This document shows, piece after piece, positions 21,331 to 61,414 of a DNA stretch of 64,000 nt. Within the stretch, counting starts at the first letter, position 1. The number at the start of each line of letters is the position of its first letter. The position numbers and the translations under genes are program-made. Below the pieces are notes generated by a model, which made no database searches, was not told the DNA's origin, and was given only the letters and a program-made list of their open reading frames with translations. This DNA is from Amphiscolops sp. MND2022 (taxonomy: Eukaryota): assembly GCA_964187785.1 (NCBI GenBank), contig OZ076417.1, positions 55,552,001-55,616,000 of the forward strand. The letters run 5' to 3'.

Positions 21331-21350
21331 AAGGGAGAGAGAGGAGGGAA
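21331..21350 (+). promoter_or_regulatory. Element A polypurine tract
   Basis: AAGGGAGAGAGAGGAGGGAA immediately before the 3' LTR. Confidence 0.9.
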
Positions 21351-26011: not shown

Positions 26012-26651
26012 TGTCGCGATTTTGTTCGCTACACACAGAGTCCTCTGAACTCTGACGAGACATTTGTCTACTATTTTCTTGGGTAAAACACGTTTTAGGG
26101 TGATTTTCCCATGTTTTCTGGCTATTTTCAGATTCGGGGTTCCGTTGTTGCCCACTGGACCTTTGGTCTGCTACGGTGTAATTTGTCATTTTCGGGCCCA
26201 GGTGAGGCCCGTCGGACCCTCGGTCCATTACGGTGAAATTAGCTCTCCCCTGCATATTTAGCGTATTTTGGATAGAAGGAAGCACAGTACTTGTTATTAC
26301 AGCTGTAATTGCGTCTTGAATCTGAGAATTCAAGCCAGTTTTGATCTCATTGAGTTTTCTTGCCATTTGGTTAGAAATTTCCTCATTAATCAACCTAGTT
26401 GTTTCAATAGTTATTTCACTATTTTCTCTACTATTCGTTAGTAGTGACCTAAAGTCCTCTCCAGTTATATTGGAATTTCGTTGAGGCCTGCTAGACTCTG
26501 AGTCTAAGTTTAGCTCATTTTCACTTTGAACATCTCCTTCTTCATTTCTTGAGTAACTTCCTAACATTACATCTACGTTTTCTACGTCAGACATTATGTC
26601 TAATTGCCTTGAGCGCCTTTCCTTATTCTTTTGTTTTCTCGTTGAAGGCAT
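25974..26651 (-). CDS. LTR-encoded ORF in the 3' LTR of B (open; runs 38 nt into the flank)
   Basis: MPSTRKQK...EQNRD; homologous to 39962-40639 and to 60310-60867. Confidence 0.6.
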   Translation of the reverse strand: MPSTRKQKNKERRSRQLDIMSDVENVDVMLGSYSRNEEGDVQSENELNLDSESSRPQRNSNITGEDFRSLLTNSRENSEITIETTRLINEEISNQMARKLNEIKTGLNSQIQDAITAVITSTVLPSIQNTLNMQGRANFTVMDRGSDGPHLGPKMTNYTVADQRSSGQQRNPESENSQKTWENHPKTCFTQENSRQMSRQSSEDSVCSEQNRDNNYKSEILQAIL

Positions 26652-27491
26652 CGAAGATTCAAATCAATTCAACAATAAATTGGTCGAACGAACAGGTATA
26701 TCAACTGTATCTGGTCAGACTAATGGTACAGAATGATCGTGTGTCAATTAGCAATGCGTGGAATGTTGTCAGTTATTCAGGTAATCAGATGAATGAATCT
26801 CTGGTCCGTCCGTCCGTCCCTCCTATATATAGTTTGGGAGGGATGACGGCCAAAATACTGCGCGTCATGTTACTAATAATAGCACTCAGTAGGGTTGCGT
26901 CATAGTGACGTTATTACATCAAAGGAATTTTGTCAGTTAAGCCGACAAGGTGTTATGTAGCGACTTTATATATTCATAACTAATAATTTACAGGTTTTTA
27001 TGATCACTTATTGTAAAAATACAAGTCAACTCCAAAATTAACCGTAGTGGACTTTACGTCCATATGGCTACAGACTAATACTACGCTGGCAGCGTATTGT
27101 ACAATTTCCACCGCGGTGGACATTCAGTCCGCGGAGCTACAATAATTAACTGCAATGTGATTGGATAGCTTGTCCAGTGATGCATGTATAATTGATTAAA
27201 TGATGAGTTCATTCGAACTCGTTTCCTTCCGTGTTGTGTACACGTACTTATTGTCTCTAACAATTTACTGCAAATTTACATTGAATGAGAATACCACAGC
27301 AATTTCCTGATATAACAGGCACGGATTGTTTATTAATTATAACAAATTGTAATAAGGTTAATGTTTGTTGTGGCTCGGTGGTTTGAAGGTCCTATAAGTT
27401 CAGATTGGAAGAACTCCTGGTGGTGGATTTGTGTTGTCTCCTTCCACTAAAAGCTGATAATAGTTGCCGTCACAGGCGGCCGCCTGCGACA
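26012..27491 (-). repeat. Element B 3' LTR (1480 bp)
   Basis: Direct repeat of 40000-41479, about 44 substitutions by eye, no indels. Confidence 0.97.
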
Positions 27492-28209
27492 CTCCCCTAG
27501 GGACAAAGAGCACTATCCTTTGGTCCATTCCTGCAAGGTATGCCTCGCGTCTTCGCATTCTCTCGCCATACGACTCGCCACGATAAGTCGTAGCCTCTAA
27601 GTAGCCCAGTACTGCAGTCTCTTTTATCTGTTCTTAATTTCGTCCACAGACGATACAATCTCCATATTGCGCTGTGTTGGGCTGTCCGCAATGGGCTGCC
27701 ATTCTTACACTTATACCTTGAATATGGGAATTCAGAGGAAGAGGGTGATTGGTCTGTTGTTGTTGTTGTTCCTTGAAGGAAAGGCCATAATACTGTCCTC
27801 GCTCATGCGCTGGTGGCGACAGGGGGTGTCGATCTGTGGCCGTAGTTGTCCGCACTGGCTAATCACTGGACTCCCGGTCCTTTGGGCCTGCCCCCATGAC
27901 CAATGGGTCTGCTTGATCGTCACTTGACTGCAACAAGCTCTCATAGTCATCCCAAGGAAAGTCTGGGAAGGCACTGTCTGAGCAGCCTGAAAGGTCAGTG
28001 GTCATTTGCAGTCCACCAACAGTCGGTTGTGTTTGAGCGGGCAATTGGCGGTAACATGCGATCACCTCAATGTCACTGTCGTCCGACGTGCTGATTGTCG
28101 CATCTACAGATTGTATATCCACATTCTTTTCTTCTCCTGACGAAAAGTAGCTGGGGCTAACAGGAGGGTTGACTAGGTCGTCCATTGGGAATTGTATGTT
28201 CATCTCCAT
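27400..28209 (-). pseudogene. Element B ORF3 (sense, 270 codons, 2 in-frame stops), overlaps PPT and 3' LTR
   Basis: Single frame 28209 to 27400 with stops at 27859-61 and 27634-36. DSDIEVIACY, CGQPN..GDCIVCG and VPRGVSQAAACDGNYYQ..PGVLPI are conserved in C ORF3. Confidence 0.8.
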
Positions 28210-29359
28210 TCGGTATCGTTTTAGGAGTAATTTCTTAGCTATTCTGAATAGAAGATAGGAGAACTGATTTTCACATTTAAGTTTGGCAGAATGATCTCTT
28301 CTTGTCCTTCAGACCTTTGGTCTTTCCCCGTTTCGCGGGAAAATTTAGGCGGGAGACCTTCTTCAGAAGTTTTAAGAATATTTCCCGTAAATGTTTCATT
28401 TTAGTAATATTTGTCATTCCGTAATTTTGTTGATGAACGTTAGACTAAGTTAATAGCCTCTCGAGTCCTTTTGATCTATTTAATTAACAACTAACGAGGT
28501 GTTAACCACTGCTATCAGTGTTTATCATCGCTCATTGTCGGTAAATAGTAACGCCATCAAAGACCATCGGTCTACCCGGCCACATCAACTAAATTGACCA
28601 ATGGGATAATGATGATGAATTAAGGTAAAAAAGTTGATGAAATGAGTAAAATGACGATTTCATCCAAGTGAAAACTAATCTATGAAACTAACTATTTGAT
28701 GAAAGGAAATCAAAGCATGAACTTCTCGACTTCTCTGGCAGGTTGCATCCACGATAAAAGGATTGCAATTATGTAATAGTACAAATGATGCATGAAATAA
28801 TAGTAGGTAACTTCAAAAGAAATGTTTTACTTTTAGGCCACGACATCCGGTACAGCTTCAGGTATTTAACCGTCTTGGGCTTTCCTATATCTAGTGAATT
28901 GTTTTACTTTGATTCCAGTCTTGTTGACAGTGAGTAGTACTAATGATAATACCAACAATCTATGTATCTGTGTCTGTCCTCAGCGTCCCACCAACCACTT
29001 GATTAACTATTTGAATTCTCCATTATACTTTCCTCCTGAACAATCCTTCTTCCAATTTACTTCATTGCCGACTTTGTGTCCCTACAGCCACAAGAGAGTG
29101 TATTGTATGGCGAAATTTCATTGTGGAAAAAGAGCGCTGAGAGGATCGGTATTATCACAGTGTAACTGGTAACCTTGGACGAGAAATTTCTGCTTTTCCG
29201 TCATGGAAATAACATCAGGTTGGTTCTTTAATTTTGTTCAGTCCAAACATGATCAGGGTTCAAACTAAACTATGTTTTACTTCCTCCATCGTGAAATATT
29301 TTCAATCAAACTTTGAATGAAACAAATTTTACTTCCGGAAGTTTTGAAAAAGCGGCAAG

Positions 29360-32300
29360 ATGGATTTGTTTGCTGGAAGTGAACCGCGTAAGTTTACTTC
29401 TTTCCATTTAGGCAAAGAATCAAGTGTCCAACCACCCCAAACGTCCCCTGAGACTGATAATACCACTGAAATTCCGCATGTGGCCCAATCCACCACTGCA
29501 ACTGTACCTCTTGGGACAGAAGATAGTGACACAGACCGTGCTAATGCACAGCAGTTAGCTGAAGAGATTGCGCTACCCAATCTACTGCTTTCTGCCATCG
29601 AAATCATTGAAGAAAGTTCCTCTCAAGCTTCAATGGAGTTAAACTCAGGCGGCCAGTCTCCGGCAGTTTTCGTCACCGAGCCGGACCCAATGTCCCAAAG
29701 GCCTCAATCACCCACTATTCACCTTCGCTATTGAGGCTCCTTGTGACCGGAAACAGCAGCTCTAGAGAAAGTCTCCAAGCATACGTCGCCCGCAAACTGG
29801 TGGATTGTGAAGAAGAGGAAGAAACAAAGGCGATCGGCGAACCTGGACCTTCTACTAGACATGTCTGCGGAATCGGAGGGCCTACAGGCACAGAAATGTG
29901 TCTGTAGCGATTTAGCTTGCAGATGCACTGTAATGTAGCACACAAAACATTCAGTCCAAAACAAGTGTGAGCGATGCAATCACCATTACTCCTGCTGCGA
30001 ATTTGTCAATTGGTACTCCTGGTCTCTCTGCTGCTACTCCGGTTGTCATCTTCATCGGGCCACCAGGACTCAACGCAAGTCAGACTGAAAGTGACCGCTC
30101 ACGTAGCTCAGCGAAAAGGCCTCGGGTAGGTAGCAGTTCAACTTCCGTGAATCAACCTCCCCCTAAGTTTGGGCTGATGTCCTCATACCTTATTCAACAA
30201 GCTCCCTCTAGACAAGAAATCGATTCGACTAAAAGCTGCAATACCAGGAGTCAAGATGAAATCCCCAGTACTTCTGCAGTTGAGCCAGGGTCTGATTTTG
30301 AAACCGTTTCTGATCCTGTTGGTTCCAACATTGCTCAAGCTTTGGACCCCAGGCCTGAGCGCATTTGCCCCATACAGGTTTCAAGGAACCCCCCGAAATA
30401 CCACTCTGAAGCCCAGTAGAAGAGCATTGATAAAGGAGTATTTTGCTGAGGCTGATCCGTCTTTCTTCCCCACGGGACATCCCGTCATTGCTTTTACTGA
30501 GGATCAGGTCAGCACAGTCTTGAAGGTTGTGGCCGAAGCGACTGTCAGATCCACTCAATCCATGCTTGAGAAAATCATCAAGCAGGCCAGTAAACTAAAC
30601 TTGGGACCTGGAGGCGATAGATCGTCACCGCTGAAAACCATGGGTACTAGCAAGTCCAAGCGCGGGAGTACAGGCTCCGTACAATACAATGACACTAGCG
30701 GAGCTCTCCGAAGCGACGATGAGTTCTCAAGCATTGGGTACTCTTTTGAAGGGCGAGAGCACCAGGAGGTAGCTGCACCACCAGTTTCGACTGACAGGCC
30801 TAGTTGTAGCCGTGCCGACCCAACGTCCTTCCAGTCTTCCTTTTTTGCCGGCAGTCCTGGTGAACAGACCTTGGCTTCGCTGAAAGCTGAAGCAATAGAA
30901 GACCGCTCCAAACTATCGCGTAACAAGCGAGGTCGTTTCTCTCAGGCCAACACTACTCGTGGTACTCGAAGAGAAATAACTCGGTCATGCAAGATCATGA
31001 AGGTGGCCTACTTCAAAGGCATGGAGTGGACCAGAACTTTCGTCTCCGGACCTGTCGACACGAAGTGGAATCGTTACAAATTTTATTGTCAAATTGTAAA
31101 GCCAACATTCCCATTTACAGGAAGGGAGCGAGAGAGATTTTGCGTCACCACTCGACAGGGAAACACCTCCGAAAGGACCAAAGGTGGAGGTACGAGTACC
31201 TGTACAAGACTGACCCCGTGACCAAAACTCGTATCCATCAAGTCAGAGGAAAAGACGGTAAGGTACTGAGCCCTTACCAGCTGGAACTAGAGCTCCCCAA
31301 ATTCATCGATAAAGAGTTAGTTGAGATTGGTCCAAAACTCCCCTTTTACGACGATTACCTCTCTGGCATGGACTATATGGCTTCATCATCCGACAATAGA
31401 GCCAGAGTTCAACTTTCCATGCTGGGTCGATTTCTCCCAACTTACGGCGACATTGAGGTACTGAAGCGATTCTGGAGCAACGTTGGGGTCATCGTTAACC
31501 ATCAAGCCTTATTCACTGACTTTGACTGGAGCAAAGAAAGGTTGACTGTAAGTATCCTTCAATATTCAGTCCATCATATTAGGATTTAGTATAGAACTTT
31601 CGGTCCTCGTTATACAATTTCTGTCTTTCTTTTTAGGTCTTGTTCCACCATCTGTTCCAAGAAGTCTTGAATGACATTGTCACTTCCATCAATGCCAATG
31701 GCGAATACTCCCTTGAGTTTGCAAGCGATGGAATCTTTCTGTTGGTCTTTTTGCGGTGTTGGAGAGGAGACAAATTGTGCCGAGTCTTTGTCAAACGGAC
31801 TGGGAGACTGCAAGGCCAGAGCGACGCTGAGATCTGCCTAATCTCTTTCATTATGGGAGCAATCTCAACTAGATCTAAACTGATCAGTTGTACTGGTAGC
31901 AGCGCCCGCACAGTCCAACTTTTGGACCACAGCCCTTACTGTTCTTTCAGTGTGCAAAGCCCTCCCCGCTTCGAAGAACTGACCCTTTCTCAGCTTATGC
32001 ATCGGAAAAGTCAGAGTGTTTTTGGACGAGTCGACTTCGTCTCCACACTGCGCTATCTAGTTGTGTCGCTCGGAGGCAGTCTTGAGCTGGGATGGGTTTT
32101 GCTTTCTCCCGAACTTTCGAAGGAATGTATTATCTTGTAATCACCTACTTCAGACAATTTGGACCTTTGGTGTAAACTGCGGCAGATAGATTGATCCCCT
32201 TTTGCTTTACTAGGCCATTCGCACTTGTCAATTGGATGCCAGTGGACTTCCTGCATTGTGTCGCGAACAATTGGACCAAGGTTCACACGTATCTGAGCAA

Positions 32301-33664
32301 AACTGTTCCTTTTCAAGATATGCAAGGTGTCCGCAAACAGGTATTAATCTTATTTCTCTTTAGGTCCTAGAGACTACAGGTCCTTATCGGTTCTAATCTT
32401 GGTTGTTGTAGGCACAGAACCTAGAGTGGTCAATCGTGTATGACAGTCTTTTCCCCAGTCGGCTCGGGTTATTCTACCGTCTAATACAGGACTGTGAGTG
32501 GACGTTTTTGTAAATCGTTTTCTGTTACATTCTCATTTTCATTGTTTTTTCTTTCCAGATACCAGCAGCTTTACCCTCAACCTTAAGTCTCGGCGCGATA
32601 GAGGATTTCATGTCTACACGGAATTGTGTCAATTCCTATTCAAACTCGCCCGCAGGTGTATTCAATCTGGTAGTCTCCCCGCTGAGCACTACAACCCAGG
32701 GATTCTTAAGTGTTCCTTTCCCGAAGCCACAGCTCTTATCGTTGGAGACTTCATCACTAGGTCCGAGCTAGGGGCTAGACTCGAGGTCGGTTGCAAGCAG
32801 AAGGCTGAGAAGGAGCTTGACGAAGACAAGAACCAGGGCCTTCGTCTTGAAGAAGTGACAGCAAACAATGTAGAAGAATGTGGTCGATCAGCCCGAGGGT
32901 ACGTCGCTTACTTACTTGGAGCAACACAAAAATTCAGCCGATTCACGTCTGACATAGTAAAGGGTCTCGACTCTTTTGACTTGGAAATTTTACTGGTGGA
33001 CCCTATGGAACAGGCCCCTTACTGCTGCAAGCAGCTGTTTACCAGCTTCAGGCTTCGTGGAGTTGTTGATTCATCAGAGGAAACTGTGTACGCTGAGGAA
33101 TACCTTTCTTTTGTTGACGAGCTGCGACGACTTCATCCAGATATGCAACAACCTAAGCTTCTGATAGCCGATGCTGTTGATTTCATTTCTGGCCAAGAGG
33201 CCTTGAAGACCAGACGTCACCTAAACAGGATCTTCTCTCTCAGTTGCATCTGCCTTGACGAGCTAAGATTCAGCTTCCCTGGTGTCAAATTTGGCTCAGT
33301 GAAAACAGACGAACCAACCTGCAGTATGTTTGACGTTGTGGCACCTATTCAGTCGTTCCTTGATCACGGCCTCCGCGGAATAGATATTTTGACTTCTGAT
33401 TCCTCCATAGCCGGTTTCCTCACTCTTGAACGGTCTTTTGGAACCACAGGACTCGAAAGCACATACAGTCCCTGGGACTAAATTGATAACTTTGGGCGCC
33501 AACAAATTAGGGATGTCTCCAATGTCTGTCGACGCACAACCACAGGGGCAGAATCAAGTCGGACAAGTCCTGCCAAATCACCAAAAAGAGTCCGCATATC
33601 CCCTAGCAAATCTACATCCCGACGTGATGTTCCTGAGACCGAAGAGGCATTAATGTCTACTTAG
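29360..33664 (+). pseudogene. Element B antisense, intron-containing gene (BED-like zinc finger, hAT-like region)
   Basis: Start MDLFAGSEPRKFTSFHLGKE; C-x2-C-x16-H-x5-H at 31087-31166 after correcting one frameshift; GT-AG introns 31548-31636, 32341-32411, 32494-32558; homologous to C 57191-52922. Confidence 0.85.
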
Positions 33665-33862
33665 TAAGCCTAGTACTTCAAGTGGTGGATCCGCTAAGCA
33701 ATAATTTTACTTTGTATACGTTTATGTATTAGCCTTTCTTTTATGTATATATTTTGTTGCATTTATTTATACCAGTTATTCACGTCATGCTTGTTGTCCT
33801 CTAGTTAGTCTGGTCCCTGCTATAGTATTTATTTGAAGAGGGGCAGTAATTTACATATCTGT

Positions 33863-36800
33863 CTAGTATGTATTCATCAGTAAAGTTGGGTGTGGGGTTA
33901 GGATGCAGGTTATATTTTCCTCCCCTAGGGTTTTCATTTTGTACAATCACATCATCATTTTCATCATCTAATACTTCGGGCACGATAGTATTGCTCCCCC
34001 CTGATGATAGTTGGTCATCAAGTTCGTCATTTGTGCGTTCTGAATCACTTTCGTCAGGCGATTTAAAATTTTCATTTTCTTGTGGCTCGGTGGACCGAAG
34101 GTCCACATCGGTGAAAATTTCGTCCGGCATGCTGACGTCATCCACAACACCATTTGAAGTGTCTGTGGTATCAAGACGCGTAGGATTTGAGGTGTTTTCA
34201 GTTGAATCGGGAAATTCTCCAAAATTGGTTTCCCAAGTGATAACGTATAGGTCATCTTGTGGAATAATGATTTCGTCGTCCGGTTGCAAATTGCCTTCTG
34301 GTCTGAAATCCTGTAGGACGGTGTTCGGTTCGTATTTGCGCAGTCTGATACGGTGTAGAATTTGCGTTTCGTTGGAATTTAGTTTTCTAACTATATGATT
34401 TTTGTTCGGCAAAACCTTTTCCACAATGTAGGGTCCTGTCCATCGGTATTCGCGGAATGGAATTTTCAATCCTTGGTGATCAGCGATGGGTTGTATTATA
34501 AAACAATAGTCGTTCTGTTTCAAAGGAGCCGCTTTGGCCTTTCGGTCGTAGTATTCTTTGTACTTCAAGTACGATTGCATGATGTTTTTCTTTGTAGAAT
34601 CTAGAAGTATCTTCGTGCAGGGCTGAACTTCGTCTGCAAAATCAGTAGTCGGTAGGACCGTTGGGTTTGGATTAAGGCCCAATTTAAGATCCAATATATT
34701 ATATGGGATTTTTCCGTGGAAACTTCTGGATGGTTCACATGCCAGGGTGGCGTGATGTGTCGTATTGTAATTCAGTACAGCAAACCGCAAGTAATTGTGC
34801 CACTGTCGCCTGTAGTCCCCTCAGGTCATCTTGAGATTCGTTTTGAGACTAGCATGAGTTCGTTCTAGTTTACCAATTGTCTGCGGATGTTTTGTAGTTG
34901 CGCATTTTATTTAGATTCCCAGAATTTGAGGTACTTCGGCAACTAATTTGGACGTAAAGGCTGTCCCCTTGTCTGTAATCAAGGTAGTAGGCAAGTATGT
35001 ATGTTTGGTCATTATGTCTATAATGACCTTTGCCGTGTTTGTGGCCGGAGCGTCGGTGACTGGATTTGCAAAAAGATATCGTGGAAACACGTCCATTGCG
35101 GTTATGATATTTTCGTACCCTCCACTGGGAGGCAGGTTCGGTAACAAATCAATTTGCATTGCATCCTCCGGACCTAAGTCCCATTCGGGCAAATTTAGCA
35201 ATTCGGGCGTTATGGATGAATTTGGAATTCTCTTATCTTTGATGCAAGTCTCGCAGCCTTGAACCCATTTTTTTAACAATTTTTGCGATGCCAGGATAGT
35301 AAAATTTATGGCGCATTTCTATGAGCATCTTGGATATTCCAGGATGTTTATTAGCTTTGCCATGTAGGGATTTAAGTATTTCTTGGACCAGATGTTTTGG
35401 TAATAGGACTTGATTGTATTTGACTGCTGCTGTTTCGTCGAAGTACTGTCTGGTAATAATATCATCCGTGACGGACAGTCGGTCTATTCGGGGTCAGTAA
35501 TGTTGGTAGCGGTTGTCTTGTAATAAGATGGTCTCTGAGGAGCTTTCTTTCAGTATTTTTAAGCGCAATTGTTGCAGAATGACGTCATTGTTTTGTTCGA
35601 CTTCTAGAGTTCATGTATGATAGTTTTTGAAGTGTGGATAGTTTTTGAAGATAGTTTGTGGTAATCACTGTTGTGTGTAGAAAAATTTTCAAATGAAATG
35701 TCAGGTAATTGATTTGCTGGATTATCCCTAGCGTCTTTTTTACGTGGTAAAATTTGTTCTTCCGTCTCGTCATCATCCTCTGTACAGAAGATTTGCTCCT
35801 CTTCCGAAACTCCGGCCGATTGGACGTTTAGTTCAATCGGTGTTGTGGGGATATCTTCTCTAAATCTGAGGATTAATTTCTCTTTTGGAGAGATCTCTAG
35901 ACGTGACAGGTAGTCAGCTGCTGTGTTGTTTTTGCCTGGGATATGCGCTATGGTGAAATTGAACTGAATGACATAATCGCAAGCGTTCCATAGTGTTGGC
36001 GGAACAATTTTTGTCCGAAAGAATCTTGTGACGGACTTGTTGTCCGTTGGTATAATCACCGGTTTTGGGGTTCCCCAAAAGATGTGTTCGAATTCCTTAA
36101 AGGCAAAGAAAATTGCCAAGCATTCTTTCTCATCGATGGACATTTTCAATTGGGTAGGACTAAAGCTCTTGGATCCATAAGGTACTGGTGCGAAAGCTTT
36201 CCTCGAAGAAGTGTACTTCTCGAGTGGATCGTCCTCGATGAGAACTGCGTACCCTGCAGCCGAAAAGCTAGCATGTGTCATAAGGGCTATTTGCTTGTTC
36301 GGTAGGGGCTGTTTGAGTGCCAGTTCGCAACATCGGTCGAGAGCTTTGTTTATTTCGGTGAATTGTTCCAAGATGTCCAGTGTTACCAGGACTTTTTCAT
36401 CTTTGGTGAGCAGTTTGAAAAACGGTGTTAGTTTTTCTGATAGTCTCAGGATGTAGTTTCGATATTAGTTCAGAAATCCTAAGTAGCGCTGTAGTGCTTT
36501 CTTAGATTTCGGGAATTTCGTATTTTCTAGGATGTTTTGGACCCGTGGTCTCTGTGGTGGTCCGCAGGAGTGATAGTACGTCCCAGAAAATCAATTTCCG
36601 TGGCACCAAAGTGACATTTATGCATGGTAAGCTTTAGACCAGCTTTCTGAATGCATTTGAAAGTGGCCCTGAGGTTGTTGATAAGTTGTTCGGCGTCATT
36701 GGCGGCAATACCAATGTCATCAACTTACTGGGCACATTGGTTTGCTTTGATGACTTTGTCCAAATATTCGCGCATAAAGCTGGAAAACGCCAATAGGGCT

Positions 36801-47982: not shown

Positions 47983-50900
47983 ATTTGCTACGACTCCAAT
48001 ATCAGGAAAAACTGCGTGTCAGACAGTTTATAATTCTGACCCTTCTACCATATTCTATACCGAATTTGTTTCTTCACTTAAAACAACCTCATCTGCTGAC
48101 TGGCTGACAACCTCATCTGCTGAGAACTAACCCTACACAACTTCGCAATCCGGACCACTGTTCCGACGAACTTGACTCGACTGCAAACTCTACCCGACCT
48201 CTTCCTTTAAAACCTGATTACAACCCATACTACATAGATCCCGATTACGGTGGTGACCCCTATTGAGACATTCAAATCTACAACCAACGTGAGTTACAAT
48301 TCCATGAACATTTCAACAAGCCAGAAGCTGAAATTGAACCAGACTGTCCCGTGTCTGACATAGTTTTAAACGATCTGTTGACCAAAGCGCTAGTCGACCC
48401 GTGGCAAACGAGAACCGATACTTGTGCCTCACAGACACAACATGAGACGGAACTCGAATCATGCAAATCCGGACAGCAAGTCTCTTTGACTACAGCCGTC
48501 GAAGCACGATTCGTGAACACGCTGGGTGACCAGAAATGGCGAACCAGATTACGTACCGCTGACAACCAATCTTGGACTCAAATATAAACGACGAATGCAC
48601 TATTTTCCCATCGATTTTGGCGAACTTGCATTAGATGGCCTTGTAGACACGGGAGCCTTATCTAGCGCAATCCCAGAAACTGATCTACGTAAAATCCAAC
48701 TGTTAGCCCCTCAGTCAATTGTCAAAGAGGGCCCAGCACCCAATTTGCAAATTATGGTAGCAAATGGGCAGTTGGAAACCCCGAAGAGCACTGTCGAACT
48801 AAAGTTTGAGGTCGGCGATATAGAATTCCATGAAATTTTTTTTGTAAAGGAGAAATTAACGAGTCCATTGATTGGCCTTTCGTTCTTACAACGAAAGAAT
48901 ACCATACTGGACATGCGACAGGGAGTCTTAAATTTCCCGTTTTTCTTCATGCAATTGCAAACAGCGGATCACAAGTACACCAACGTCATGGAGCCTATCT
49001 GTACACAGGAGGATATCACAATTCCCCCAATGATAGACAACTAGGCACGTTGAGTTCAAAACCGTACGACGATACCACTGTTACTGGCATCCTCCAACCG
49101 AATATTGCACTCACCGAGGACGGAGACATTGCCTTTTGCGCGGCATTGGTCACATTGACCTCCGGTCAAATACAAATTCATTTGAATAACTTCACTGACC
49201 ATCCTCAAGAGAGGTTCGCATGTTGCCAATTTCTCTGTCATGACCCCAGGACAGATGAAATATGTTAAACCTATAGACCCGGTTACAACTTGACACCTAT
49301 TGCAAAATAACCCTGAAAACACTGCATCTTTTGTTAGCAGCTTGATCAAATCTTCCGAACCAGAAAATTTCAAAGAAAACTATTGGTTCCCTACTCTGGA
49401 AGACCCTGGTTATTAGCAACAACATACGCCTATTCAAAAACGCATTCTTCAAGAACTATTGAATCTCCAAGAACTGGAAAAACTCGATCCTCAGGATGAC
49501 CCTGAGTCTGGGCGACAATTCCTGACCAACTTTGATTGGACAGACTCTATGCTGCAACCACAGGAAATTGCAAGCATTGAAGATCTACTAGTCGAATTCC
49601 ACGACATATTTGCCGGACACTGATTTGACATAGGCATGAATGAGAAATTTAAAGTCAAACTGACACCAAAAGACGATTCCCCAGCCTACAGTTAAAGTTT
49701 ACTAACGCCTATCAACCTCAAGGAAGACATTCGTGTCAAATTAGCACACTTACAACGCTATGGAATAATAACTACTCTCCCATTTTCCAAATACGCTAGC
49801 CCAATCTTTGCACAAAAGAATTCTAATGGCAAATTAAGACTACTAGTTGACCTTAGAAAGATCAGCAATCTTATATCAGATGACTACATCAACAACAAGC
49901 ATCCCGTCAGTACACTCACTGACGCTGCTGAACATATTGCAGGCAAAAAGCTGTTTTGCAAATTGGATTGCTGGCAAGCATACCATTACCTACAGATGGC
50001 TGATCAAAAGTCCATTGAAATGCTGGCGTTTAATTTTGCCATCCAAACCTTCGCATATCGCTTTATGCGTGAATACTTTGATAAAGTCATCAAAGCTGAT
50101 CAATGCGCACAATACGTCGATGATATCGGCATTGCCGCAAATGATGCTGAACACCTAATCCAGAACCTCCGAGCTACTTGCCAATGCATCGGAATAGCAG
50201 GCTTGAAACCTACAATGCACAAATGCTATTTTGGCCCGACGGAAATTGACTTCCTAGGCCGAACAATTTTTCTGGTTGGAGTACGTCCACAACGACCATG
50301 AGTCCAAAATTTTCTAGCAAACACAAAAGTCCCAAAATCTAAAAAAGCATTACAACGATACCTGGGCTTTCTCAACTATTACCGCAACTACATTCCCAGA
50401 CTCTCCAAAAAACTGACGCCCCTTTTCAAATTATTAAAAAACGATGAAAAAGTCCTGGTAAACCAGACCTGTTGGAAAAATTTACCGAAATAAACAAGGC
50501 TCTTGACCGTTGTTGCGAATTGGCACTCAAGCAACCGCTACCGAATAAGCAAATAGCTCTCATGACTGATGCCAGCTTTACGGCAGCCGGATATGCAATT
50601 CTGATTGAGGATGACCCCCACGAAAAACACATCTCAACGAAAGAAGATTTAACCACGGTGGCCTACGGATCAAACACCTTCAGTCCCGCACAGCTTAAAA
50701 TGTCCATTTACGCTGAGGAATTCCTTGCAAAATTCTTTGCCTTCAAGGACTTTCGACACATATTCTGGGGGATGCCTAAACTGGTAATAATAATGACCGA
50801 TAACAAATCGGTCACGCGTTTCTTTCAAACAAAGTTCAATCCACCTACCCTTTGGAACGCGTGCGATTACGTCACCCAATTTAACTTCACTATTGCACAC

Positions 50901-52670
50901 ATTCCCGGCAAAACAACGCGGCAGCCGATTACTTATCCCGTTTAAAAGTTTCACCAACAGAAAAATTGATCTTTCGCCTTAGGGAGGACATCCCCACTAC
51001 GCCAATTGAACTTCACGTCCAATCAGCGGGGGTCACAGAAGAAGAACAAATTTTCTACACTGAAGATGACGACGAAACCGAGGTGCAGATCTGGCAACGC
51101 AAAAAACAAGCCCGAGAGACCCCTCTCAACCAATTGCCGGATATTTCTTTTGATAAATTTACAATTATTTATAGTAAATATCAAACACTCTCTAATTCCA
51201 AAAATCTCGCCAATATAAATACTGTGGTCATAGAGCAAAACAACGAGGTTATTTTACATCAACTCAAACTCAAAACACAGAAAGAAGAGTATTCCGAAAC
51301 AATTCTGACACAAGACACAAGATATCAACACTACCTACGCCAATTGGACCGGAAGGTCCAGAAGAAGCAATGCAAATAAACCTTTTACCCAACCTCACGC
51401 CAAGCGGAGGATACAAAAATATTATTACGGCCATGGATGTTTTTTCGCGTTACCTTTTTGCTTACCCAGTTACAGATGTATCAGCGACCAATACGGCTAA
51501 GGTCATTATTGACATCATGACCAAACATACATATTTGCCAACAACTTTAATTACCGATAAAGGATCAGCCTTTACTTCAAAATTGGTTGCTGAAATTGCG
51601 CAAATATTGGGAATCCAAATCAGATGGGCGACCACAAAATACTCCCAGACAATAAATAAGCTTGAAAGGACTCATGCAAGTCCTAAAACGAATCTCAAGA
51701 TGGCCTCGGGGGATTATAGACGTCAGTGGCACAAATGTTTACCTTTGGCAGTCCTAAATTACAACACGTCATACCGCTCGACGTTTCGCTGTGAGCCCTC
51801 AAGGATTTTTCATGGACGAATACACTACGCTATTGTAGACCACAAATTGGGATTCAATCCCAATCCTACAGTTTTACCAACAACTGATTTTGCTGAAGAA
51901 TTTCAACGCAGAACGCAAATTTTGATAGATACAACAAAAAAAAATTTCATGCAATCTTAATTGAAGTACAAGGAATTTTACGACCGAAAGGCAAAAGCTA
52001 CACCTTTGAAACCAAACGATTATTTTTTATTTTACAACCCATAGCAGATCATCAGGGATCAAAAATCCCATTCCGAGAGTTTCGATGGATTGGTCCTTAT
52101 ATCATTGAAAAGGTTTTACCCAATGACAACTACATAGTCCGAAAACTCAACGCGAACAAGACGCAGATTTTGCATAAAATCCGTCTTCGAAAATATGAAC
52201 CAAATAGCGAATTGCAAGACGTACGTCCGGAAGGGAATTTACAACCTAATGACGAAATTGTTATTCCGCTTTATGATTTATACGTAATCACGTGGGAAAC
52301 GAACTTTGGCGACTTCGAGTCTGGCCGACGTAATACGCCCTACGAGCTACCGAATGAACGAGCAGGAAATACGAGCGACGTTGCTGACTATGCTGACCAA
52401 CCAGATCAAATTCTGAACGACGTGGACGTTCGGTCTGTCCACCAAACGACATTCGACTGAAAGAAGCTTCCTTGATGAACTAATGCACGAACGTGATGCC
52501 GAAACAATTCCTGATGATGAGACATCCTCAGGGGGGAGCGATACTGTCGAGCCCGAAGTATTAGAAAGTGAAAATGATGAAATGATTGTAGAAAATGTAA
52601 TTCCTAGAGGAGTAAAATACAACTTCGTCCTAACCCCACCCCTAACTACACTGAAGAATACAGATACTAG
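47973..52670 (+). pseudogene. pol: Element C pol, degenerate; integrase HHCC region deleted
   Basis: LVDTGALSSA, AQYVDDIG, ALMTDASF, ITDKGSAF, ends EYRY*. At ~51350 RQLDR joins GPEEAMQI, skipping ~0.3 kb present in B. Confidence 0.94.
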
Positions 52671-52921
52671 CGAGAACAATATATTGCAAAGTCACTGTCT
52701 TGCTAACTGCCCTCAAGGACGTGTATTTTAATTGGGACAATTCTGACTTTTTGAAATGAATAACTGTCGACAAAGCGACTTGGTTGCGTACAATACAAAA
52801 ACCACTGTAAACAATTGCGAAATAAATGATTAACAACAAGAAATAAATACAACAAACAAATACAACTAGTCTACAGAATACAAAGATACAACTATACGAC
52901 CAAAATGTACACTATGTATAA

Positions 52922-55900
52922 TTAGTTTTTACTACTACTCTGGCGAAGACTCTTGGCGCTTTGACTAATTTCATCTCCTGATAACAGACTCGTGGGACGC
53001 GTGTGCTCTTTCGAAGAGCGAAGAGTAGTGGGGGAATGCTGGACTTCAGATTCGCTTGCAGGTTTTCCTTTCTTAGGCTTTGTCTGAAACTTTCCTTCTG
53101 GGTCAAGCTTAGACAAAATTTCTGTTCGCCCAAAGTAATCCAATCCCAACCAAGGGTCGTACGTATCACTTAGGGCACTGCGTCCGAAGGTAGACTCGAG
53201 CTCGAGGAAATCGGAAAATCGGAGGCATCACTAGTGGCAGTATCAATATAACCAACCACGTTACTGAAACACGACTGGACCGGCAGGACGACATCCACTA
53301 GCTCACTCGTAAGGTCCTCAGTATTGTCGCTGCCAAACTAGACACATGAAGGGGGTGGAATGGTTCCTCCAAACAAAGGAAAGCAAGTTTGAAACTTCGC
53401 AGCAACAACGGACGAGCATGTAACAAGGCCTCTCCTGCGATGAAGTCAATGGCATCAGGAATCACAAGGTTGGGTTAGTCAAACTCAGAATATTTGACCA
53501 GAAGTTCGTCAAGAAATGACAAGTACTCTTCTTGTGCAAGGGACTCCTGGTCCATTGAGAAGTAACCTTGCAGTCTGAAAGTAGTGAAGAGCTTGCTGTA
53601 GCACTTGGTTGCAAGAGTAAGTGGCAGTTTCAAAAGAATTTCCACATCGAAGCATCCGAGTCCTTGAGCGATAAGCGTGGTAAAGTCAAAATGACTCCTG
53701 GTCTCCTTGAAGAGATGAGTCACATAACTCCTTGCAACTCTGCCGTAGTCTTCTTTAGCTTTACTTGTCAGCTCTTCCAGGGTCACCTTCTCTCCCTTCT
53801 CATAGTGCATATCAACTTCTGCCTTCAACTTACACGCATGGTCCAGTTTCAGTCCGAATTTTAGTTGATTGAGGAAGACGGTGACACTCAATGCGGGAGC
53901 AACATATACATCTAAGTTGAGGATTGCATCAATGCCATCCTCAGAGGGATGAGACTTTGAAAGAACCACCCGTTTTGCTAACTATGCGTGGAAACCTCGT
54001 TCTCGACGTCCGCTGAGGCTAAAAGAGAAGTTGTAGTATCTAAACATAGACTGAATTTAGTATGAATGCTAATGCGAAGGAAATCCTACAATCTACAGGA
54101 CAGTAAAAGTCAACAACACCGGAAGTCACAAATGGAGCATTGTATTGGAAACTGATATTATGCCAAGGTAAACGGAATTCTCTGAGTCTAAAGGTACTGA
54201 AAGATGTCCACCATTAAAAGGCGTTGGGATACTAACAATCACGGACCAACTTGTGGAAGAGTTCCAAATGTCAAGTGAAGAAATCGTCATGGATGATAGA
54301 CCACTCAAGAGTCTGTGGCTAAAATATGGGAATGCATTGCAAAACTTAAAAGAAGGACCGAGAGTACACCGGACGGAGTATGCCCTACACGATTTCGCAC
54401 GCCTTGCATTTGTTGCTGGACTGCATGGGCCGTCAAGTAGGTGGTGACAGATTTCCAGTGTGTGATCAACTCTTGGCAGAGAGCAGGAACGGAAGAAACG
54501 TCAAGTTTGCTAGACTTTATGGCCTAAAACACGAACAGAGAGTCGCTTAGCCATGCTAATTATAGTAGGGGATGTATTACAAGTGTGCCTTTGTACAATG
54601 ATGAGATTCTTTCTACGGAGCGAGACAAACTACAACCTTTGAATTTTCTAAGCATATGGACCGAAGGTAGAGAAGTACTAACTTTGTCCAAATCTGGGGT
54701 GAATAAAGTCCACTCCATTTGGACACTCCCTCCTAAAACGATCACGAGATGCTGCAGGATTGAAAAAAGTCCAAACACGCTGTTACTGTCCTTGTGCATC
54801 AGCTTCTTGATGGCAAATTCGTCAAAACTGGCAGGTCGTTGGACACCATGCTTCGACAATAGGGAAATGTCCAATAATTGCACAATGTGGAAAGAGCCCC
54901 CTGAACAACACACTAGATCTGCTTCCGTCGATATGGCAGCCAGGAATGTTGAAAGCAATCGCAATTCGGCAGCAGTCAGTCCACCGGTACGGCCGGTCCG
55001 AAGTACATAAACTCTGCACAACTCATTTTGCTTCCAAAACCGCACGTGCAAATGGAGGAACACGCCCTGTAGTTCAAACGCGACAGAGAACTGTCTTTCG
55101 GTGAGAACATCATTTCCCAGGCTGGGGATCATCTGGTGGAACAAGTGATGGAACAACATCTGAAATACAATCATGCAATTAGTCACGAGAGGACAGACGG
55201 CTATTCGCAAGAACACAAAATATGCTCACGTTACTGGATGACTAATACCTCATGAATATATGAAAGTTGCAATTTGATTGATTTAGATATTCACACACCG
55301 TTGCAGACCTAATGTCGACCAAACTAATGAAGACTACTTACTGAGATCCGAGTAGTACTCCAATCGATGTGCCAACACAGTGCCTGATGATTGACGACGG
55401 TCCCTGTGTGCTGCCAGAGGGTACGGAGAACCATATAGTCTCCTGACAGCGGGAGATAGTGGTCCAAGATAGAAATTTGCCATGTGGTCAACCTCTGCCA
55501 TAGCTTGGTCATAGAAGAGGAATTTCTCCCCGATGTCCACTAGCTCGGCTTTGATGAAGGGGGGAGTTTGCGCTGCAGTTGGTAGTTCGTTAAAAGCTTA
55601 CCATTTTGGCACCTGACCTGGTAGCGTGGCCTCTTCGTCAATAGGTCCTCGGTGGTCAAGCATTCGTACCTCCACTTCTGATCCTTGCGGAGAAGTCTGT
55701 GGCGTAATGTCGTAAAATTTCTTTGGGACCTTTTGCCCGGATGGAGATGTTGCACTTGCAGATCTGGTAGTAGATTTTGTGCTTGTTCCACTTAGGATCT
55801 ACAGGCCCGGATACGAAAAAGCAAGTCCATGGCATTGACTCAAAATACTTTGCCTTCATAACTCTCCCAATCCGCTTGCGAGGCTTGGATGGTCTGTTTG

Positions 55901-57191
55901 ACTTGTGGGCAGAACTTGTCTTCTTTGATGATTTCCTCCTCTCCCTGCAAGTTTCCTGTCGGACATTAGCTAAACTTTGTGCTCCCGGACTGGTACACTC
56001 CATAGTTGATGGTGTAGACCCAGGGTCTCTGCTCCCGTTGGCAACCGCTGTTGGTGAAGGGGCTAAATTGACCGAAGACTGGAAGTCATGAGGCGACTCA
56101 GGATCGATAGTGAAACCTTAGCTGCTGCTCTCCTCATGTACATCAGTGGTCAAAAACGAATTTGCATCGCCCTCAGTATCTGTGTCAGTGATATAACTTC
56201 ATTGCGAACACCCCCTTGGGGGGGGGGGTCTTGGAACGATCAAGCAAACTCAATTGACTGGCTTTCTGGACCACACTATTGACCAAAAAAAGCTCGGGCA
56301 CTCTCGTTTGCCACGATCTGATGGATACTTGTAATTTGCTCTTGGTTCAATGCAACCGTCGGATGTCCAGGGGGCAATTCAATAGGATTGGTCTCTGCGA
56401 AACATTGTTTTTTAAAAGCACGGCTAGTACTGGACAAAGGAGTTGGTTGGCTGGCAATTGGGGCTTGTGTTATTTCAGACTCATTACTGGAATCTTGGGG
56501 ACAGAGGATGTCAGTTCCGCGTGTAGGGCAGTAGAGAGCCTGAGCAAGAGAAGAGCGTGTTTGCAATGCAGTTTCTATATCCATCTCAATAAAGGATTCA
56601 TCTTCTGTATTGGACCGATAGTCTATTCTCTCAACTCCTACGTTCGATTCTTCTGTATTAACTTTTCCATCTTCTGTGTCCTTTCCCCAATATCTATTTT
56701 GCCCAAGTTGTCTTCTGATCTACAAGTCGTTTCTTTGGACGCTTGTTCGGAGCGAGCTAGGCCCGACGACTAAATGAGCAGGAGTGGGCGCTTCCAAGAA
56801 AGTAACCTCTGGCAGGTTATCGTTGGGGAATTCAGTGAGTGCTAGAAAGTTGGCACCAGGGGTGACGGATACCGAATCACTCACACTTGCCTTATCACGG
56901 TCTGAAGACTGTTCCTCTGTTATGGCTGGTGTCGGCTCCTCAGCTGCCAAAGACTCCATTTTTCTGGTAGAATAAGCTCAGCAGCTTTTTGTCTCACTGG
57001 CTGAAATTAATTCATTTATAGAACTTAAGTCTGCTGGTCGTTCGACGACTTCGACTTCAGGAGCTTGCTCGTCTTGTTGAGACTTGTTTTCCGTGTATTC
57101 TGCTATTGTTTGACTCGGTTGGTCACTCATTTCTTTGCCTAAGTGGAAAGAAAGAAATTTACGCGATCCACTTTCGCTAAAAAAAATCCAT
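52922..57191 (-). pseudogene. Element C antisense, intron-containing gene (homolog of B 29360-33664)
   Basis: Start MDFF-SESGSRKFLSFHLGKE; QICKCNISI...LRHYATD..HLRKDQKWRYE; introns 55341-55160, 54388-54319, 54236-54040; LESTFG..TYDPW..DYFGR near the end. Confidence 0.85.
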
Positions 57192-58546
57192 CCGCTAAAG
57201 AAAACTTTCAAAAGCAAGCTCATTATCTGTTCTTACCCATGGTTAATTATTTCATGATGGAGGAGGTGAAAATTAGTCAATGGGAAGCCCTGATCAAGCT
57301 CAATTTTGGCAGAACAATTTAAAAGAACCAACCTGATATTTGTCTATATTGGCAAAGAGAATCTGTGGGTTCAGCTACCGCTATTGGGCTGGAATACTGG
57401 GATCTGCAAATTGGAGATTGCTGTTGGGAACTTTGCCGCTCTGAACTCAGAAACAGGATGGACTTGAACTTAGGTCGCAATAGGTTGGACAGACTAACAA
57501 TCCGGACGATGCAAATCTGCGGGCGATGCTGCTACTACGACAAAAGCTGAAGATGTAGTTCTCTTTTGAACCAGACGGATAATTTGCTACAGGGGAATTG
57601 TAACAGGAATTGAGAATGTGAAATTTTTCATAATAGTTAAAACAATACAACTGTTGTGCTTCTGGCTGTAATAGTTAGTAAACTGGCTTACGTCGCTATA
57701 TATCATATTCGACCAGAAGTCCCACTTTCCCGAATCTACTACTTACCACTACTGTTGACTCTCAAGACGAACAATTCTTTGTTTACTAAACCCTTTCAAT
57801 TCATTACACATCAAAGGACGTCGTGGCTACATGCAAGTAAACTAATTGTTATAAAGTTTTTATTTCTTTGCATACTCCTTTATTGCGTTTTCAGTGTTAC
57901 GGAACCTGCCAGTAATGTACACTAATCCGATATTCCTTTTATTACACTTTTGTTTCATGTTTCTATGCTGATATAACCAGCACTTTTTATCAACATTTCA
58001 TATAATTATGCCATTCCATTACTCCATTCAGGATTTACTTGAATTTTCATTCTTTTAGTGAACCACTCTGATTGGACAGTTGGTCGAGGCTAGACGTAGA
58101 GACCGACGGTCTTTGAAGATACTTCACTGTTAAGAATGAGTGATGATAAGCAATCTCATCACTCATTGTCACCTCTTTATTAGTTATTATAACCACTTGA
58201 AGCGATCTCAAGGACTTAACAACTTTACGGGCGGCTTATCATCAAAACCTATTTGGTGAAGGAGTTTGCTTAATACGGAAAGTCGAAGAATTCGATGGAG
58301 GAAGCGGGTAAAAATTTCCCGAACTCATATTCCCGCGAATTTTGGGAGTCTCGACCTGAAGTCGATTGGACCAAGACTGCCATTCTTCTCAAAAGTCACT
58401 CTACGAATCAGTCGACTACTCTAAACCTTCAAAATTGCCAAGAAAGTTATCTCGAAAAGACTTCAAGTAGAAATGTCTCTACAGTTTGCGGTCGAAGACC
58501 TAATCGATCCCTTAGTTAACTGTCGTACCTCTCCTCAAAAAAGGAT

Positions 58547-59292
58547 ATGGAAGTAGACGACCCACCGACGGTTAACGAGATCGAGAATTCTGACAGCGAT
58601 ATAGAAATAATAGCTTGTTTCAAAGAAGTGCCAGTCACAAGACCGATGGGTATAGCAGGTCGTTGCATGACAACTGAAATCCCAGGCGACATTGACACTC
58701 TCTTCATCCTAGAAGGACTATACGGCCAGTCGACGAAGGACGACTCAGTGCCTTCTAGTGAACTAGTTGAATTAGTTCTGGGGAATCACCCACCTACCGA
58801 GTCTATGAAGCCAGAGTATCAACAGCCAATTGCAGCGTGTAGCCAATTGGAACCTATAATCGACTCACAGCTGTCTTCGCCTATAAAAGATCAGGGCCTA
58901 ATTTTACGTATTGGTCTAACCCGTGGGAAGACGACCAACCGTCCTAACAACCCGAAAACCCTCATATCTGGATAGTAGCTGTTAGCGCCAGTGGGATTTG
59001 CGGAAACCCGAACCAAGTTACCCAAGGAGACTGTATAGTGTGCGGATTAACAGCGGAAACAAACAGGGAAGGAATTACATTCGACTATCTTGAAAGAACA
59101 CATATTGCAGGAGAGACCTATGTAGCCCGCCTCAGGAGGAGAAATGCATTCCAAGCAGGGAAGCATGCTGGGTTTTTTATATTAGTCCCGGGGGGAGTGT
59201 CGCAGGCTACCTCCTGCAATGGTAACAGGTACCAAGCCGCAGTCAACGATGTTAACAACATGCCTCTACTTCCCGGAGTTTTGCCACTGTAA
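58547..59292 (+). pseudogene. Element C ORF3 (one frameshift), overlaps PPT and 3' LTR
   Basis: DSDIEIIACF; CGNPNQVTQGDCIVCG; VPGGVSQATSCNGNRYQ..PGVLPL*. Stops 95 nt inside the LTR. Confidence 0.8.
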
Positions 59293-60867
59293 GTCGCATC
59301 GACCACCAGTCTTTGTTTCAAAACTTTTACAAACTATTAGCTCTTACAAACTGAAATGTTACAATTTTGTAATACTACGGACCGTAAGTCCACTTGCCTA
59401 TTCAAGACATATTATCACAATTGAATTTTGTCAGCTAATATGCCTGATCTAAAAATTTGTATTTGTAATAAATTTCGCAATGAAAACGTACATTTACACA
59501 CTTGTCATGTACATATACATATATATGCTTACGCAATGTAAATCAGAATTAGTTGGTGGTTAGATTATGAAGCAATATGTAAAATTATTGCATGAAAGCA
59601 ACTACAGAGATCAAAGGAAACGCGTTCAAACTGTCTACCGCGCTGGTCGACTTGAACGCGTAGTCCGCCATTCAATTAACCAATCAGCATTGAGCTTTTC
59701 TAATCTCAATCATTCATTTGCTAGCCTTCATGGTCGCGTCTAGTTTTAGAGACCACTAGTCCACATTGTCTATTTACTTACTTTAACAGGCTTACATGTA
59801 AATAGACATAACTGAAGTGTTCTTGTGTTAATATCAGGACTTGAAAGGCGTGCCGCCTCGACTTTCCCCTTTTCCATTTTCCATCACCTGACCTTATGGA
59901 AGGTGCTATTTATAGCATGATATCACCATGACGTAAAGATAATATTAGTTCTCAGGGTTAAATTACCCAAATCTAGTGCTATTTTTAGCCTTGAAAACTT
60001 AACGTCACAATGAAGTTAAGTCCTTGATGCTATATTTATACAATGATTGTCGATATTTTGAGTGTCATGGCCTCAAGAGTTTATATATGGGGACCGTGAG
60101 GCGACAGGGACGATAATCGTCAACCTTGCTATAATCTATTCAGCTGCTAGAACACGATCCTTGAATTGTCATTGCTGCTTTGACTTGTAGTCCCGAATAC
60201 CATTAACATCATTCTGAAGTGGATTACTGTTTTCTTGTTCTGAAACTAGTCAAACTTGTTGTTGTATTAAATAGGCCCATTCATTCTTGTTCAAACACAA
60301 TTTTCTCCAATGCCTTCTACTAGAAAGCAAAAGGCGAAAGAAAGACGCTCTCGACAAGTAGACTTGATGTCTGACGTAGAAAATTTGGATGTGATGTTAG
60401 GAGCTTACTCAAGAGACGAGCTGGGAAGTAATTCAAGAGATGGAAATGATGAAGTTTACTTAGAGCAGACGTAGCACAAAATAGTGAAGATTTCAGGTCA
60501 CTTTTGAACTCTAATAGTAGAGAAATTAGTGAATCTACCGTTGAAACCATGAGGTTGGTGAACTCAAAAGTTTCTAAGAAAATGGATGAATTGAAAAGAG
60601 ACTTGAATTTCCAGATAATATACACTATAAATTCCGTAATTGATGAGAGGATTCTCCCGAGCATTCAGAATATTACAAACAGTCACAATTCAGCATTTCG
60701 GGAAGAAACGGACCGTATGTGCAGTGGATTAGGCAGGACCACCGAAGAGAAAAGAGCTAAAAATGCTTGGACAGATAACCCAAAACCCATTCGGGTAGGG
60801 ACCAACCAAAATGAGTACTGTAGAAGAAATTCTAAAGCTTCTCATTCTAGTGACGAAGAACGCGACA
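59198..60867 (+). repeat. Element C 3' LTR (1670 bp)
   Basis: TGTCGCAGG...CGCGACA, TATA-like TATATAT at 60082, LTR ORF MPSTRKQKAKERRSRQ at 60310 (frameshifted). Confidence 0.95.
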
Positions 60868-61374: not shown

Positions 61375-61414
61375 TAATGCTGCATGTGAAAAGTTCCTGT
61401 AGTTTCGACTAGGG
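61375..61414. repeat. Orphan right end of the CACTA-like family at 10871-15129
   Basis: GCATGTGAAAAGTTCCTGTAGTTTCGACTAGGG vs GCATGTAAAAAGTTCCTGTAGTTTCAACTAGGG (ends 15129). Confidence 0.7.

Follow-up and report, generated by a model that had tools for sequence, protein, structure and literature searches.

How does a retrotransposon come to carry an intron-containing gene on the strand opposite its own genomic RNA, and what might such a gene do? The question is raised by a 64,000-nucleotide stretch of contig OZ076417.1 from Amphiscolops sp. MND2022 (assembly GCA_964187785.1, positions 55,552,001 to 55,616,000; hereafter the window, in whose coordinates all positions are given), which holds two large Gypsy elements, B and C, each with such a gene between pol and the 3′ long terminal repeat (LTR). 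From the fold of the predicted product and the order of its parts, we propose that the gene stems from a DNA transposase of the hAT type, now catalytically dead, that the retrotransposon lineage domesticated as a nuclear DNA-binding accessory factor, a reading to which we assign a probability of roughly 0.55.

26012-41479, minus strand: element B, 15,468 bp, a complete but decayed Gypsy element
46161-60867, plus strand: element C, 14,707 bp, a complete but decayed Gypsy element

A preliminary description had given both elements a ~15-kb layout, which the analysis bore out piece by piece: an LTR that contains the Gag ATG, gag, a -1 frameshift at an A AAA AAC heptamer, pol, and a spliced antisense gene whose stop lies ~140-250 nt from the pol end, i.e., tail-to-tail with it. 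Beyond a spacer follows a sense open reading frame (ORF), ORF3, which, as had also been described, runs into the 3′ LTR: it crosses the polypurine tract (PPT) and ends 92-95 nt (~30 codons) inside the U3 region in B and C. TG..CA LTR ends, a primer-binding site (PBS) starting with TGG, a PPT, and a short target-site duplication (TSD) are all present in both elements, and the Pfam domains of pol follow the Gypsy arrangement of protease (PR), reverse transcriptase (RT), RNase H, and integrase, with the integrase motifs retained. RVT_1 and RT_RNaseH scored above the Pfam cut-off with no match to a Pao-type peptidase, which makes RT and RNase H Gypsy-type rather than BEL/Pao, and the best PDB sequence match of pol was 4ol8 (E = 2.7e-4), which we take to be Ty3 RT. 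Judged from sequence, it is practically certain that B and C are Gypsy elements with this layout.

The antisense gene of elements B and C

The antisense gene comprises five exons separated by four introns (65-218 nt) at matching positions in B and C:

29360-31547, plus strand: exon 1 of B, with an S/T/P/E-rich disordered arm and a basic stretch, then the BED-like finger (~31030-31180) and a helical region; several frameshifts
31637-32122, plus strand: exon 2 of B, RNase H-like core matching Hermes 153-264; the following donor is non-canonical in this copy
32214-32340, plus strand: exon 3 of B, frameshifted in this copy
32412-32493, plus strand: exon 4 of B
32559-33664, plus strand: exon 5 of B, all-helical, weak match to Hermes 370-609; premature stop near 33480
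52922-54018, minus strand: exon 5 of C
54237-54318, minus strand: exon 4 of C
54389-54523, minus strand: exon 3 of C
54683-55159, minus strand: exon 2 of C, RNase H-like
55342-57191, minus strand: exon 1 of C, arm and finger; broken

The splice junctions were checked against 337 relatives of the accessory proteins from the database. P0223 passes directly from exon 1 to exon 2 with nothing inserted, P0042 does so from exon 3 to exon 4, and a further six (P0093, P0055, P0098, P0046, P0063, and P0041) from exon 4 to exon 5, and seven proteins read through a junction site with 22-46 additional aa; for junction 2-3, no joined form occurred among the 337 relatives. The joined forms are either transcripts or exact intron losses, and either way they argue for splicing. 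The 2,588-bp record of P0223, with its junction 1-2 joined, appears to retain intron 2, and P0042 retains intron 4, a pattern that apparently reflects partly spliced RNA or selective intron loss; these two proteins, together with P0136, are divergent relatives of the gene.

Comparison of B and C speaks to the age of the gene and to its constraint. Synonymous sites are saturated (proportion of synonymous differences, pS, 0.70-0.94), and the proportion of nonsynonymous differences (pN) is 0.29-0.43 in the accessory ORFs and 0.06-0.12 in pol and capsid, values that are somewhat optimistic since they come from local alignments favouring similar codons. These figures uphold the view of two old sister families that both kept the accessory cassette (~6.3-6.5 kb). 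The similarity of pol, which had been noted by eye, amounts to 71-72% identity in a self-comparison of the window. The accessory proteins, which had been said to share only motif blocks, turned out to share more, each piece being 38-55% identical over an alignment of 20-160 codons. Relatives are numerous: 329 for exon 5 at the 50% identity cluster level, 67 for exon 2, and 124 for the end of exon 1, and among the matches listed, 83 of 120 exon-1 relatives are open over at least 560 aa, with clusters of up to 77 members. Spurious antisense ORFs were rejected as an explanation on the basis of higher identity at codon position 2 than at position 3, the joined junctions, and the hundreds of relatives. 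The antisense ORFs almost certainly represent a spliced gene under purifying selection.

The preliminary description did not recognise what the antisense gene is; we judged its product hAT-like by eye before any fold search. Its parts run in the order disordered arm, BED-like finger, RNase H-fold exon, and helical exon, and the finger, a W...CxxC...H...H pattern with BED-like spacing, is found in 109 of 120 exon-1 relatives among the matches listed. The predicted model of exon 2 (predicted local distance difference test score, pLDDT, 70.6) has an RNase H topology, and a Foldseek search with it returned the hAT transposase Hermes in all of rows 1-6 (best E = 8.7e-4), the sole match at E ≤ 0.001 among at least 500. 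In VIA-align, positions 1-110 of this model aligned to Hermes 153-264 with a Z score of 6.0 and a root mean square deviation (rmsd) of 2.9 over 101 aligned residues. The exon-5 model is helical (pLDDT 89.9), and among 48,161 chains Hermes ranked third against it (Z 5.0, rmsd 6.3), with positions 1-277 of the model paired to Hermes 370-609 in an alignment of 161 residues, the longest among the best 50 rows. The two Hermes segments are successive and non-overlapping, the finger lies upstream of both, and the 105 residues that separate them in Hermes are roughly matched in length by exons 3-4 and the remainder of exon 2 (~125 aa). An Atlas search with the finger plus exon 2 gave ZBED, zf-BED, DUF659, or DUF4371 families in 9 of 10 rows among the matches listed, of which DUF659 and DUF4371 are presumably hAT-linked. 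Each of these structural matches is modest and no single one is strong; the case consists of separate pieces that map in order to one family named beforehand, and it makes derivation of the antisense gene from a hAT-type DNA transposase very probable.

Residues of the DDE/CxxH type are essential in Kat1 and Hermes (PMC4763223; this and the other papers cited by PMC number are represented here by excerpts of their texts). At the sites inferred to correspond to them, the antisense proteins carry other residues: the first Asp site (D1) is Asp in 0 of 63 rows (Ala in 53, Glu in 4), all 63 have Gly at the second (D2) and neither Cys nor His at the CxxH site, and none of 96 rows has Glu at the Glu site, where 15 have a gap. 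Given a hAT-type origin, the protein is very probably catalytically dead, judged by these registers. With respect to transposon ends, none of the 5 longest inverted pairs around the gene (out of 60 and 66) is common to B and C, although short or decayed terminal inverted repeats (TIRs) could escape this comparison, and no TIRs or 8-bp TSD were seen around it in either element. A recent nested transposon was rejected on the grounds of saturated synonymous divergence and the lack of a shared TIR.

Possible role and competing explanations

How such a gene could arise and persist may be pictured as follows. Judging from the sequence, the lineage of B and C replicates as a normal Gypsy element, with Gag translated from within the LTR through the PBS, Pol produced by -1 frameshifting, and the 5-bp TSDs, which are visible in the sequence, made by the element's own integrase. 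An ancestor may have taken in a hAT-type DNA transposon in reverse orientation between pol and the 3′ LTR; being complementary to the genomic RNA, its introns would persist through reverse transcription, as follows from the orientation. The inserted transposon would have lost its terminal repeats and DDE/CxxH residues and kept the BED-like finger and the transposase fold, which now appear to be preceded by an acidic disordered arm of ~480 aa and a basic stretch resembling a nuclear localization signal. Antisense transcription would start from the spacer, divergent from ORF3, and the resulting mRNA, spliced at the sites seen in both elements, would yield a product of ~1,200-1,300 aa. This product may act as a nuclear, sequence-specific DNA-binding protein on the element's own LTR or spacer, where binding would sustain transcription of the element by trans-activation or by protection from silencing. 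We favour this self-promoting role by analogy with the ZBED regulators (PMC3606216), and we hold it tentatively, at slightly less than even odds. The same degree of caution applies to the broader proposal that a whole Gypsy radiation domesticated a hAT transposase as a fixed, intron-containing antisense gene that serves as its own trans-activator or anti-silencing factor.

The same dead-transposase origin would also accommodate a protein that acts at integration or nuclear import, binding complementary DNA ends or chromatin and tethering the Gypsy integrase. It is established that the transposase fold evolved for binding element ends and target DNA, B appears to sit within a small element with inverted repeat arms, and nuclear import has been raised as a role for antisense ORFs (PMC7264820), all of which would suit such a tether; its long acidic disordered arm, however, would by composition better suit a transcription or chromatin factor, and the TSDs of B and C are of the ordinary 5-bp Gypsy type. 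We consider a tethering function unlikely, though it is the foremost alternative to the regulator model.

A number of observations weigh against a domesticated hAT transposase acting as a regulator, or at least against parts of that proposal. No binding site was found in the LTRs, and those of B and C lack a clear common non-coding motif. Host ZBEDs mostly keep their DDE residues in the excerpts of PMC3606216, whereas the antisense protein appears to have lost them. The catalytic registers were assigned from known hAT motifs together with offsets in the structures. Strand 1 retains two other acidic residues in 55 of 63 rows, but not in C. The genomic context of the gene comes from two copies, B and C. 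In sequence searches, Pfam zf-BED and hAT were absent from the matches of 25 exon-1 relatives and 96 exon-5 rows, and PDB sequence profile searches with alignments A1, A2, and A3 (the first half of exon 2 being misaligned in A2) missed Hermes and gave chance rows only. In structure searches, the Atlas scores for the finger plus exon 2 were 0.78-0.82, i.e., at the level of a lead only, and Atlas gave no useful match to exon 5 (best 0.76, unrelated). In VIA-align, the scores of exon 2 against sugar kinases (Z 7.0) and ISCth4, a MULE-type transposase (Z 6.6), were level with or higher than those against Hermes (Z 6.0-6.2), the exon-5 Z of 5.0 is within the range of chance helical matches, and Foldseek gave no match to exon 5 at E ≤ 0.001 in PDB.

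The near-tie of exon 2 between ISCth4 (Z 6.6) and Hermes (Z 6.2) would also be expected if the gene came from a related DDE superfamily with an alpha insertion (MULE/IS256, P, or Kolobok) rather than from hAT, with the rest of the model unchanged. Hermes was the only hAT protein among the solved-structure matches, and family resolution is therefore poor. We nevertheless regard a source outside hAT as improbable: the first six Foldseek rows for exon 2 were Hermes, exon 5 matches Hermes with no MULE-type chain among the best 50 rows, the N-terminal finger has BED-like spacing, and the Atlas families are ZBED-type.

A more sceptical view is that the Hermes matches are generic, reflecting an RNase H fold plus helices, and that the gene was captured from a host or a virus and encodes a nucleic-acid-binding protein of other origin with a C2H2 finger. 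Every Z score is indeed below 8, neither Pfam nor the PDB sequences gave a hAT match, and the best Pfam match of the 25 exon-1 relatives was a generic C2H2 finger below the cut-off. Such a capture would, however, have to account for two separately folded exons that map in order to Hermes 153-264 and 370-609 with the finger upstream and a gap of roughly the right size between them, and a Foldseek search of exon 5 against viral folds gave no match; we judge it to have little chance of being correct.

Finally, it is very improbable that the gene belongs to a DNA transposon that moves independently, has an atypical active site, and merely rides in B and C as a nested passenger: the gene family is large and diverse, with its context known only within this window, and 5 contigs are common to the Gag (63) and exon-1 (119) matches, and likewise 5 to exons 1 and 2, counts that come without a chance baseline, but position, orientation, and intron sites are the same in two elements with saturated synonymous sites, no TIRs are common to B and C, and no aligned row retains the expected residues at the inferred catalytic sites.

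Relation to known systems

The closest published parallel to the layout is the Retand/Tat group of plant Gypsy elements (Retand, Grande, and RIRE2), which have a region of 3-6.5 kb between pol and the 3′ LTR with conserved antisense ORFs, a standard feature of Retand elements (PMC11963269, PMC7264820). These ORFs have been proposed to encode DNA-binding regulators, and an internal promoter is known for gene23 of Grande; where the antisense ORFs of LTR retrotransposons come from and what they do is called unknown in the excerpts of both papers, in which an origin from nested transposable elements was rejected for want of similarity (PMC11963269, PMC7264820). Retand/Tat elements differ in being restricted to plants and in carrying ORFs with TRP28 or SMC-like domains and no source in other transposable elements (PMC11963269, PMC7264820), whereas the antisense ORF of B and C has four introns and a hAT resemblance and is accompanied by a sense ORF3 and an LTR-encoded Gag arm. 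TRP28 (PF04195) gave no match in Pfam scans of the window ORFs, the 96 exon-5 rows, and the 25 exon-1 relatives. B and C are Gypsy elements that are Retand-like in layout, and not an active hAT.

The antisense protein resembles hAT transposases (Hermes; Kat1, PMC4763223) in that a BED-like finger, an RNase H core, and a region weakly matching the helical insertion and C-terminal part of Hermes follow one another, and differs from them in the replaced residues at its inferred DDE/CxxH positions, its ~480-aa disordered arm, and its location inside an LTR element. With the domesticated ZBED genes it would share the re-use of a hAT-derived protein as a DNA-binding regulator, but ZBEDs were domesticated by hosts at fixed loci (PMC3606216), whereas this gene travels with a retrotransposon. 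Juno, Vesta, and TelKA of bdelloids (PMC5408684) and Burro of planarians (PMC6431247) are Gypsy elements that likewise combine additional ORFs with a dUTPase-like region between PR and RT (weak here); what they carry in addition is env, GDSL, DEDDy, or apoptosis domains, and in the excerpts of these papers “transposase” and “intron” occur 0 times in the former and “antisense” and “hAT” 0 times in the latter. The preliminary description had likened the family to complex retroviruses without env, and as an analogy of layout this holds, with an antisense gene near the 3′ end as in HTLV; the absence of env and the Gypsy-type RT and RNase H set B and C apart, a DNA transposase is the most likely source of the main accessory gene, and Retand/Grande is the nearer parallel. 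In the literature outside subscription journals and Repbase, as far as the excerpts go, we found neither an LTR element whose accessory gene derives from hAT nor a Gag arm encoded in the LTR to a comparable extent; acoel genome papers give repeat totals only in their excerpts (PMC9911081, PMC6451197).

The case would offer a concrete example of the nested-element route to a retrotransposon antisense ORF. Transposase domestication is documented for host genomes, and domestication by another mobile element would extend it; if correct, the proposal would give an antisense gene a traceable origin and point to a possible cause of the large expansion of this lineage. Since divergence hides the origin from Pfam and PDB sequence searches and fold comparison alone reveals it, other “orphan” accessory ORFs may share such origins. 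The family is large, with many open copies, which makes the question directly testable.

Remaining parts of the elements and the window

The other parts of B and C are as follows:

26012-27491, minus strand: 3′ LTR of B, 1,480 bp; contains the last ~30 ORF3 codons and a second copy of the Gag N-extension
27492-27500, minus strand: PPT of B, within the ORF3 reading frame
27400-28535, minus strand: ORF3 of B, sense, ~380 codons, interrupted; two Cys-x2-type motifs in its C-terminal part
28536-29359, no strand: spacer of B, 824 nt, 63% AT, between the divergent ORF3 and antisense gene
33801-38910, minus strand: pol of B, with PR, a weak dUTPase-like region, RT, RNase H, and integrase; several breaks
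38874-40639, minus strand: gag of B, with DUF1759 and two zinc knuckles; frameshifted just past the PBS
38877-38883, minus strand: -1 slippery heptamer of B, preceding the gag stop
39988-39999, minus strand: PBS of B, TGG start, within gag
40000-41479, minus strand: 5′ LTR of B
46161-46887, plus strand: 5′ LTR of C, ~950-bp internal deletion, Gag start lost
46888-47982, plus strand: PBS and gag body of C, broken; slippery heptamer at 47973-47979
47973-52670, plus strand: pol of C, with PR, RT, RNase H, and integrase; broken
57192-58135, no strand: spacer of C, 944 nt, 62% AT
58136-59292, plus strand: ORF3 of C, interrupted; ends 95 nt inside the 3′ LTR
59198-60867, plus strand: 3′ LTR of C, 1,670 bp; ATG of the Gag N-extension at 60310

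B is flanked by a perfect 5-bp TSD, GTTAT, and C by GTTTA. The LTRs of B, 1,480 bp each, are 97.0% identical (44 mismatches), and the shortened 5′ LTR of C is ~93% identical to its 1,670-bp 3′ LTR over the remainder, which makes C the older insertion. The gag, pol, and accessory genes are interrupted by stops and frameshifts in both elements. As the preliminary description had stated, the non-coding parts of the LTRs do not align between B and C, the sole strong BLASTN match being coding.

The Gag ATG lies at position 841 of the 1,480-bp LTR of B and at position 1,113 of the 1,670-bp LTR of C; in B, Gag begins 640 nt inside the 5′ LTR and continues across the PBS, so that ~213 residues are LTR-encoded, and residues 1-213 of the relative P0338 map onto the LTR. 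The N-extension matches 66 database proteins of 397-2000 aa, most of them 587-588 aa with DUF1759, a domain also known from BEL/Pao elements; the LTR/PBS junction peptide is present in 62 of the 66, the same N terminus in 50, and a zinc knuckle in 51. Taken together with the U3 part of ORF3, this 213-residue arm brings the predicted coding share of the LTR to about half. Coding overlap with LTRs has precedents in HIV, where nef overlaps U3, and in yeast Ty1, where gag starts in U5; to our knowledge, 213 LTR-encoded codons are far more than in Ty1. In both elements the slippery heptamer immediately precedes the gag stop and pol lies in the -1 frame, and no stimulating hairpin exceeded shuffled controls in a search for hairpins only (B, -3.9 versus -5.4 ± 2.4; C, -9.0 versus -7.5 ± 2.6). 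Between the frameshift site and PR, ~190 aa are poorly conserved (38065-38350, minus strand, in B; ~47980-48520, plus strand, in C). The dUTPase-like region of B between PR and RT (37369-38061, minus strand) is weak (Herpes_ORF11, E = 0.0025, below the cut-off), at a position as reported for rotifer, fungal, and planarian elements.

ORF3 is 46% identical between B and C over 118 aa of its C-terminal part. Its start probably lies ~230 nt further upstream, at a Met common to B (28535) and C (58136), which would give ~380 codons; we infer this start because both copies are interrupted there. Pfam gave no match and the PDB sequence search chance rows only, and no transmembrane signal was found in four pieces (best 19-residue hydropathy 0.31-0.92; the short interrupted N-terminal part lay outside the scan). 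An env identity was rejected on these grounds, in keeping with the earlier view of an element without env; from its Cys pairs, our guess would be a zinc-binding accessory protein. The spacer, which had been called AT-rich, does stand above the B cassette in AT content (62-63% versus 54%), though the enrichment is modest; two short blocks are conserved in it between B and C, and it is a candidate bidirectional promoter for ORF3 and the antisense gene.

Across the window, Pfam on 35 ORF pieces gave nothing useful for the accessory ORFs, and the Rfam and tRNA scans gave 0 matches each. Inverted arms at 25742-25843 and 41578-41687 flank B (78% over 87 nt, made of 14-bp repeats), which suggests that B inserted into a small non-autonomous DNA element. 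A third element, A (15731-21553, plus strand), is a plain, frameshifted 5.8-kb Gypsy of another lineage, with 203-bp LTRs that are 99.5% identical, TSD GCGGG, a PBS different from that of B and C, and no accessory cassette; an older relative of it lies at 279-1289. The window also contains a 218-aa open frame beside an N gap (6518-7171, minus strand; no Pfam match), a 355-bp tandem duplication with 99% identity (21971-22723), and a short dispersed repeat in three copies that are 70-79% alike (10868-11117, 14879-15129, and 61311-61417). Upstream of C, an AT-rich stretch (44000-45800) with short direct repeats at 45334-45563 possibly represents the decayed remains of a DNA transposon.

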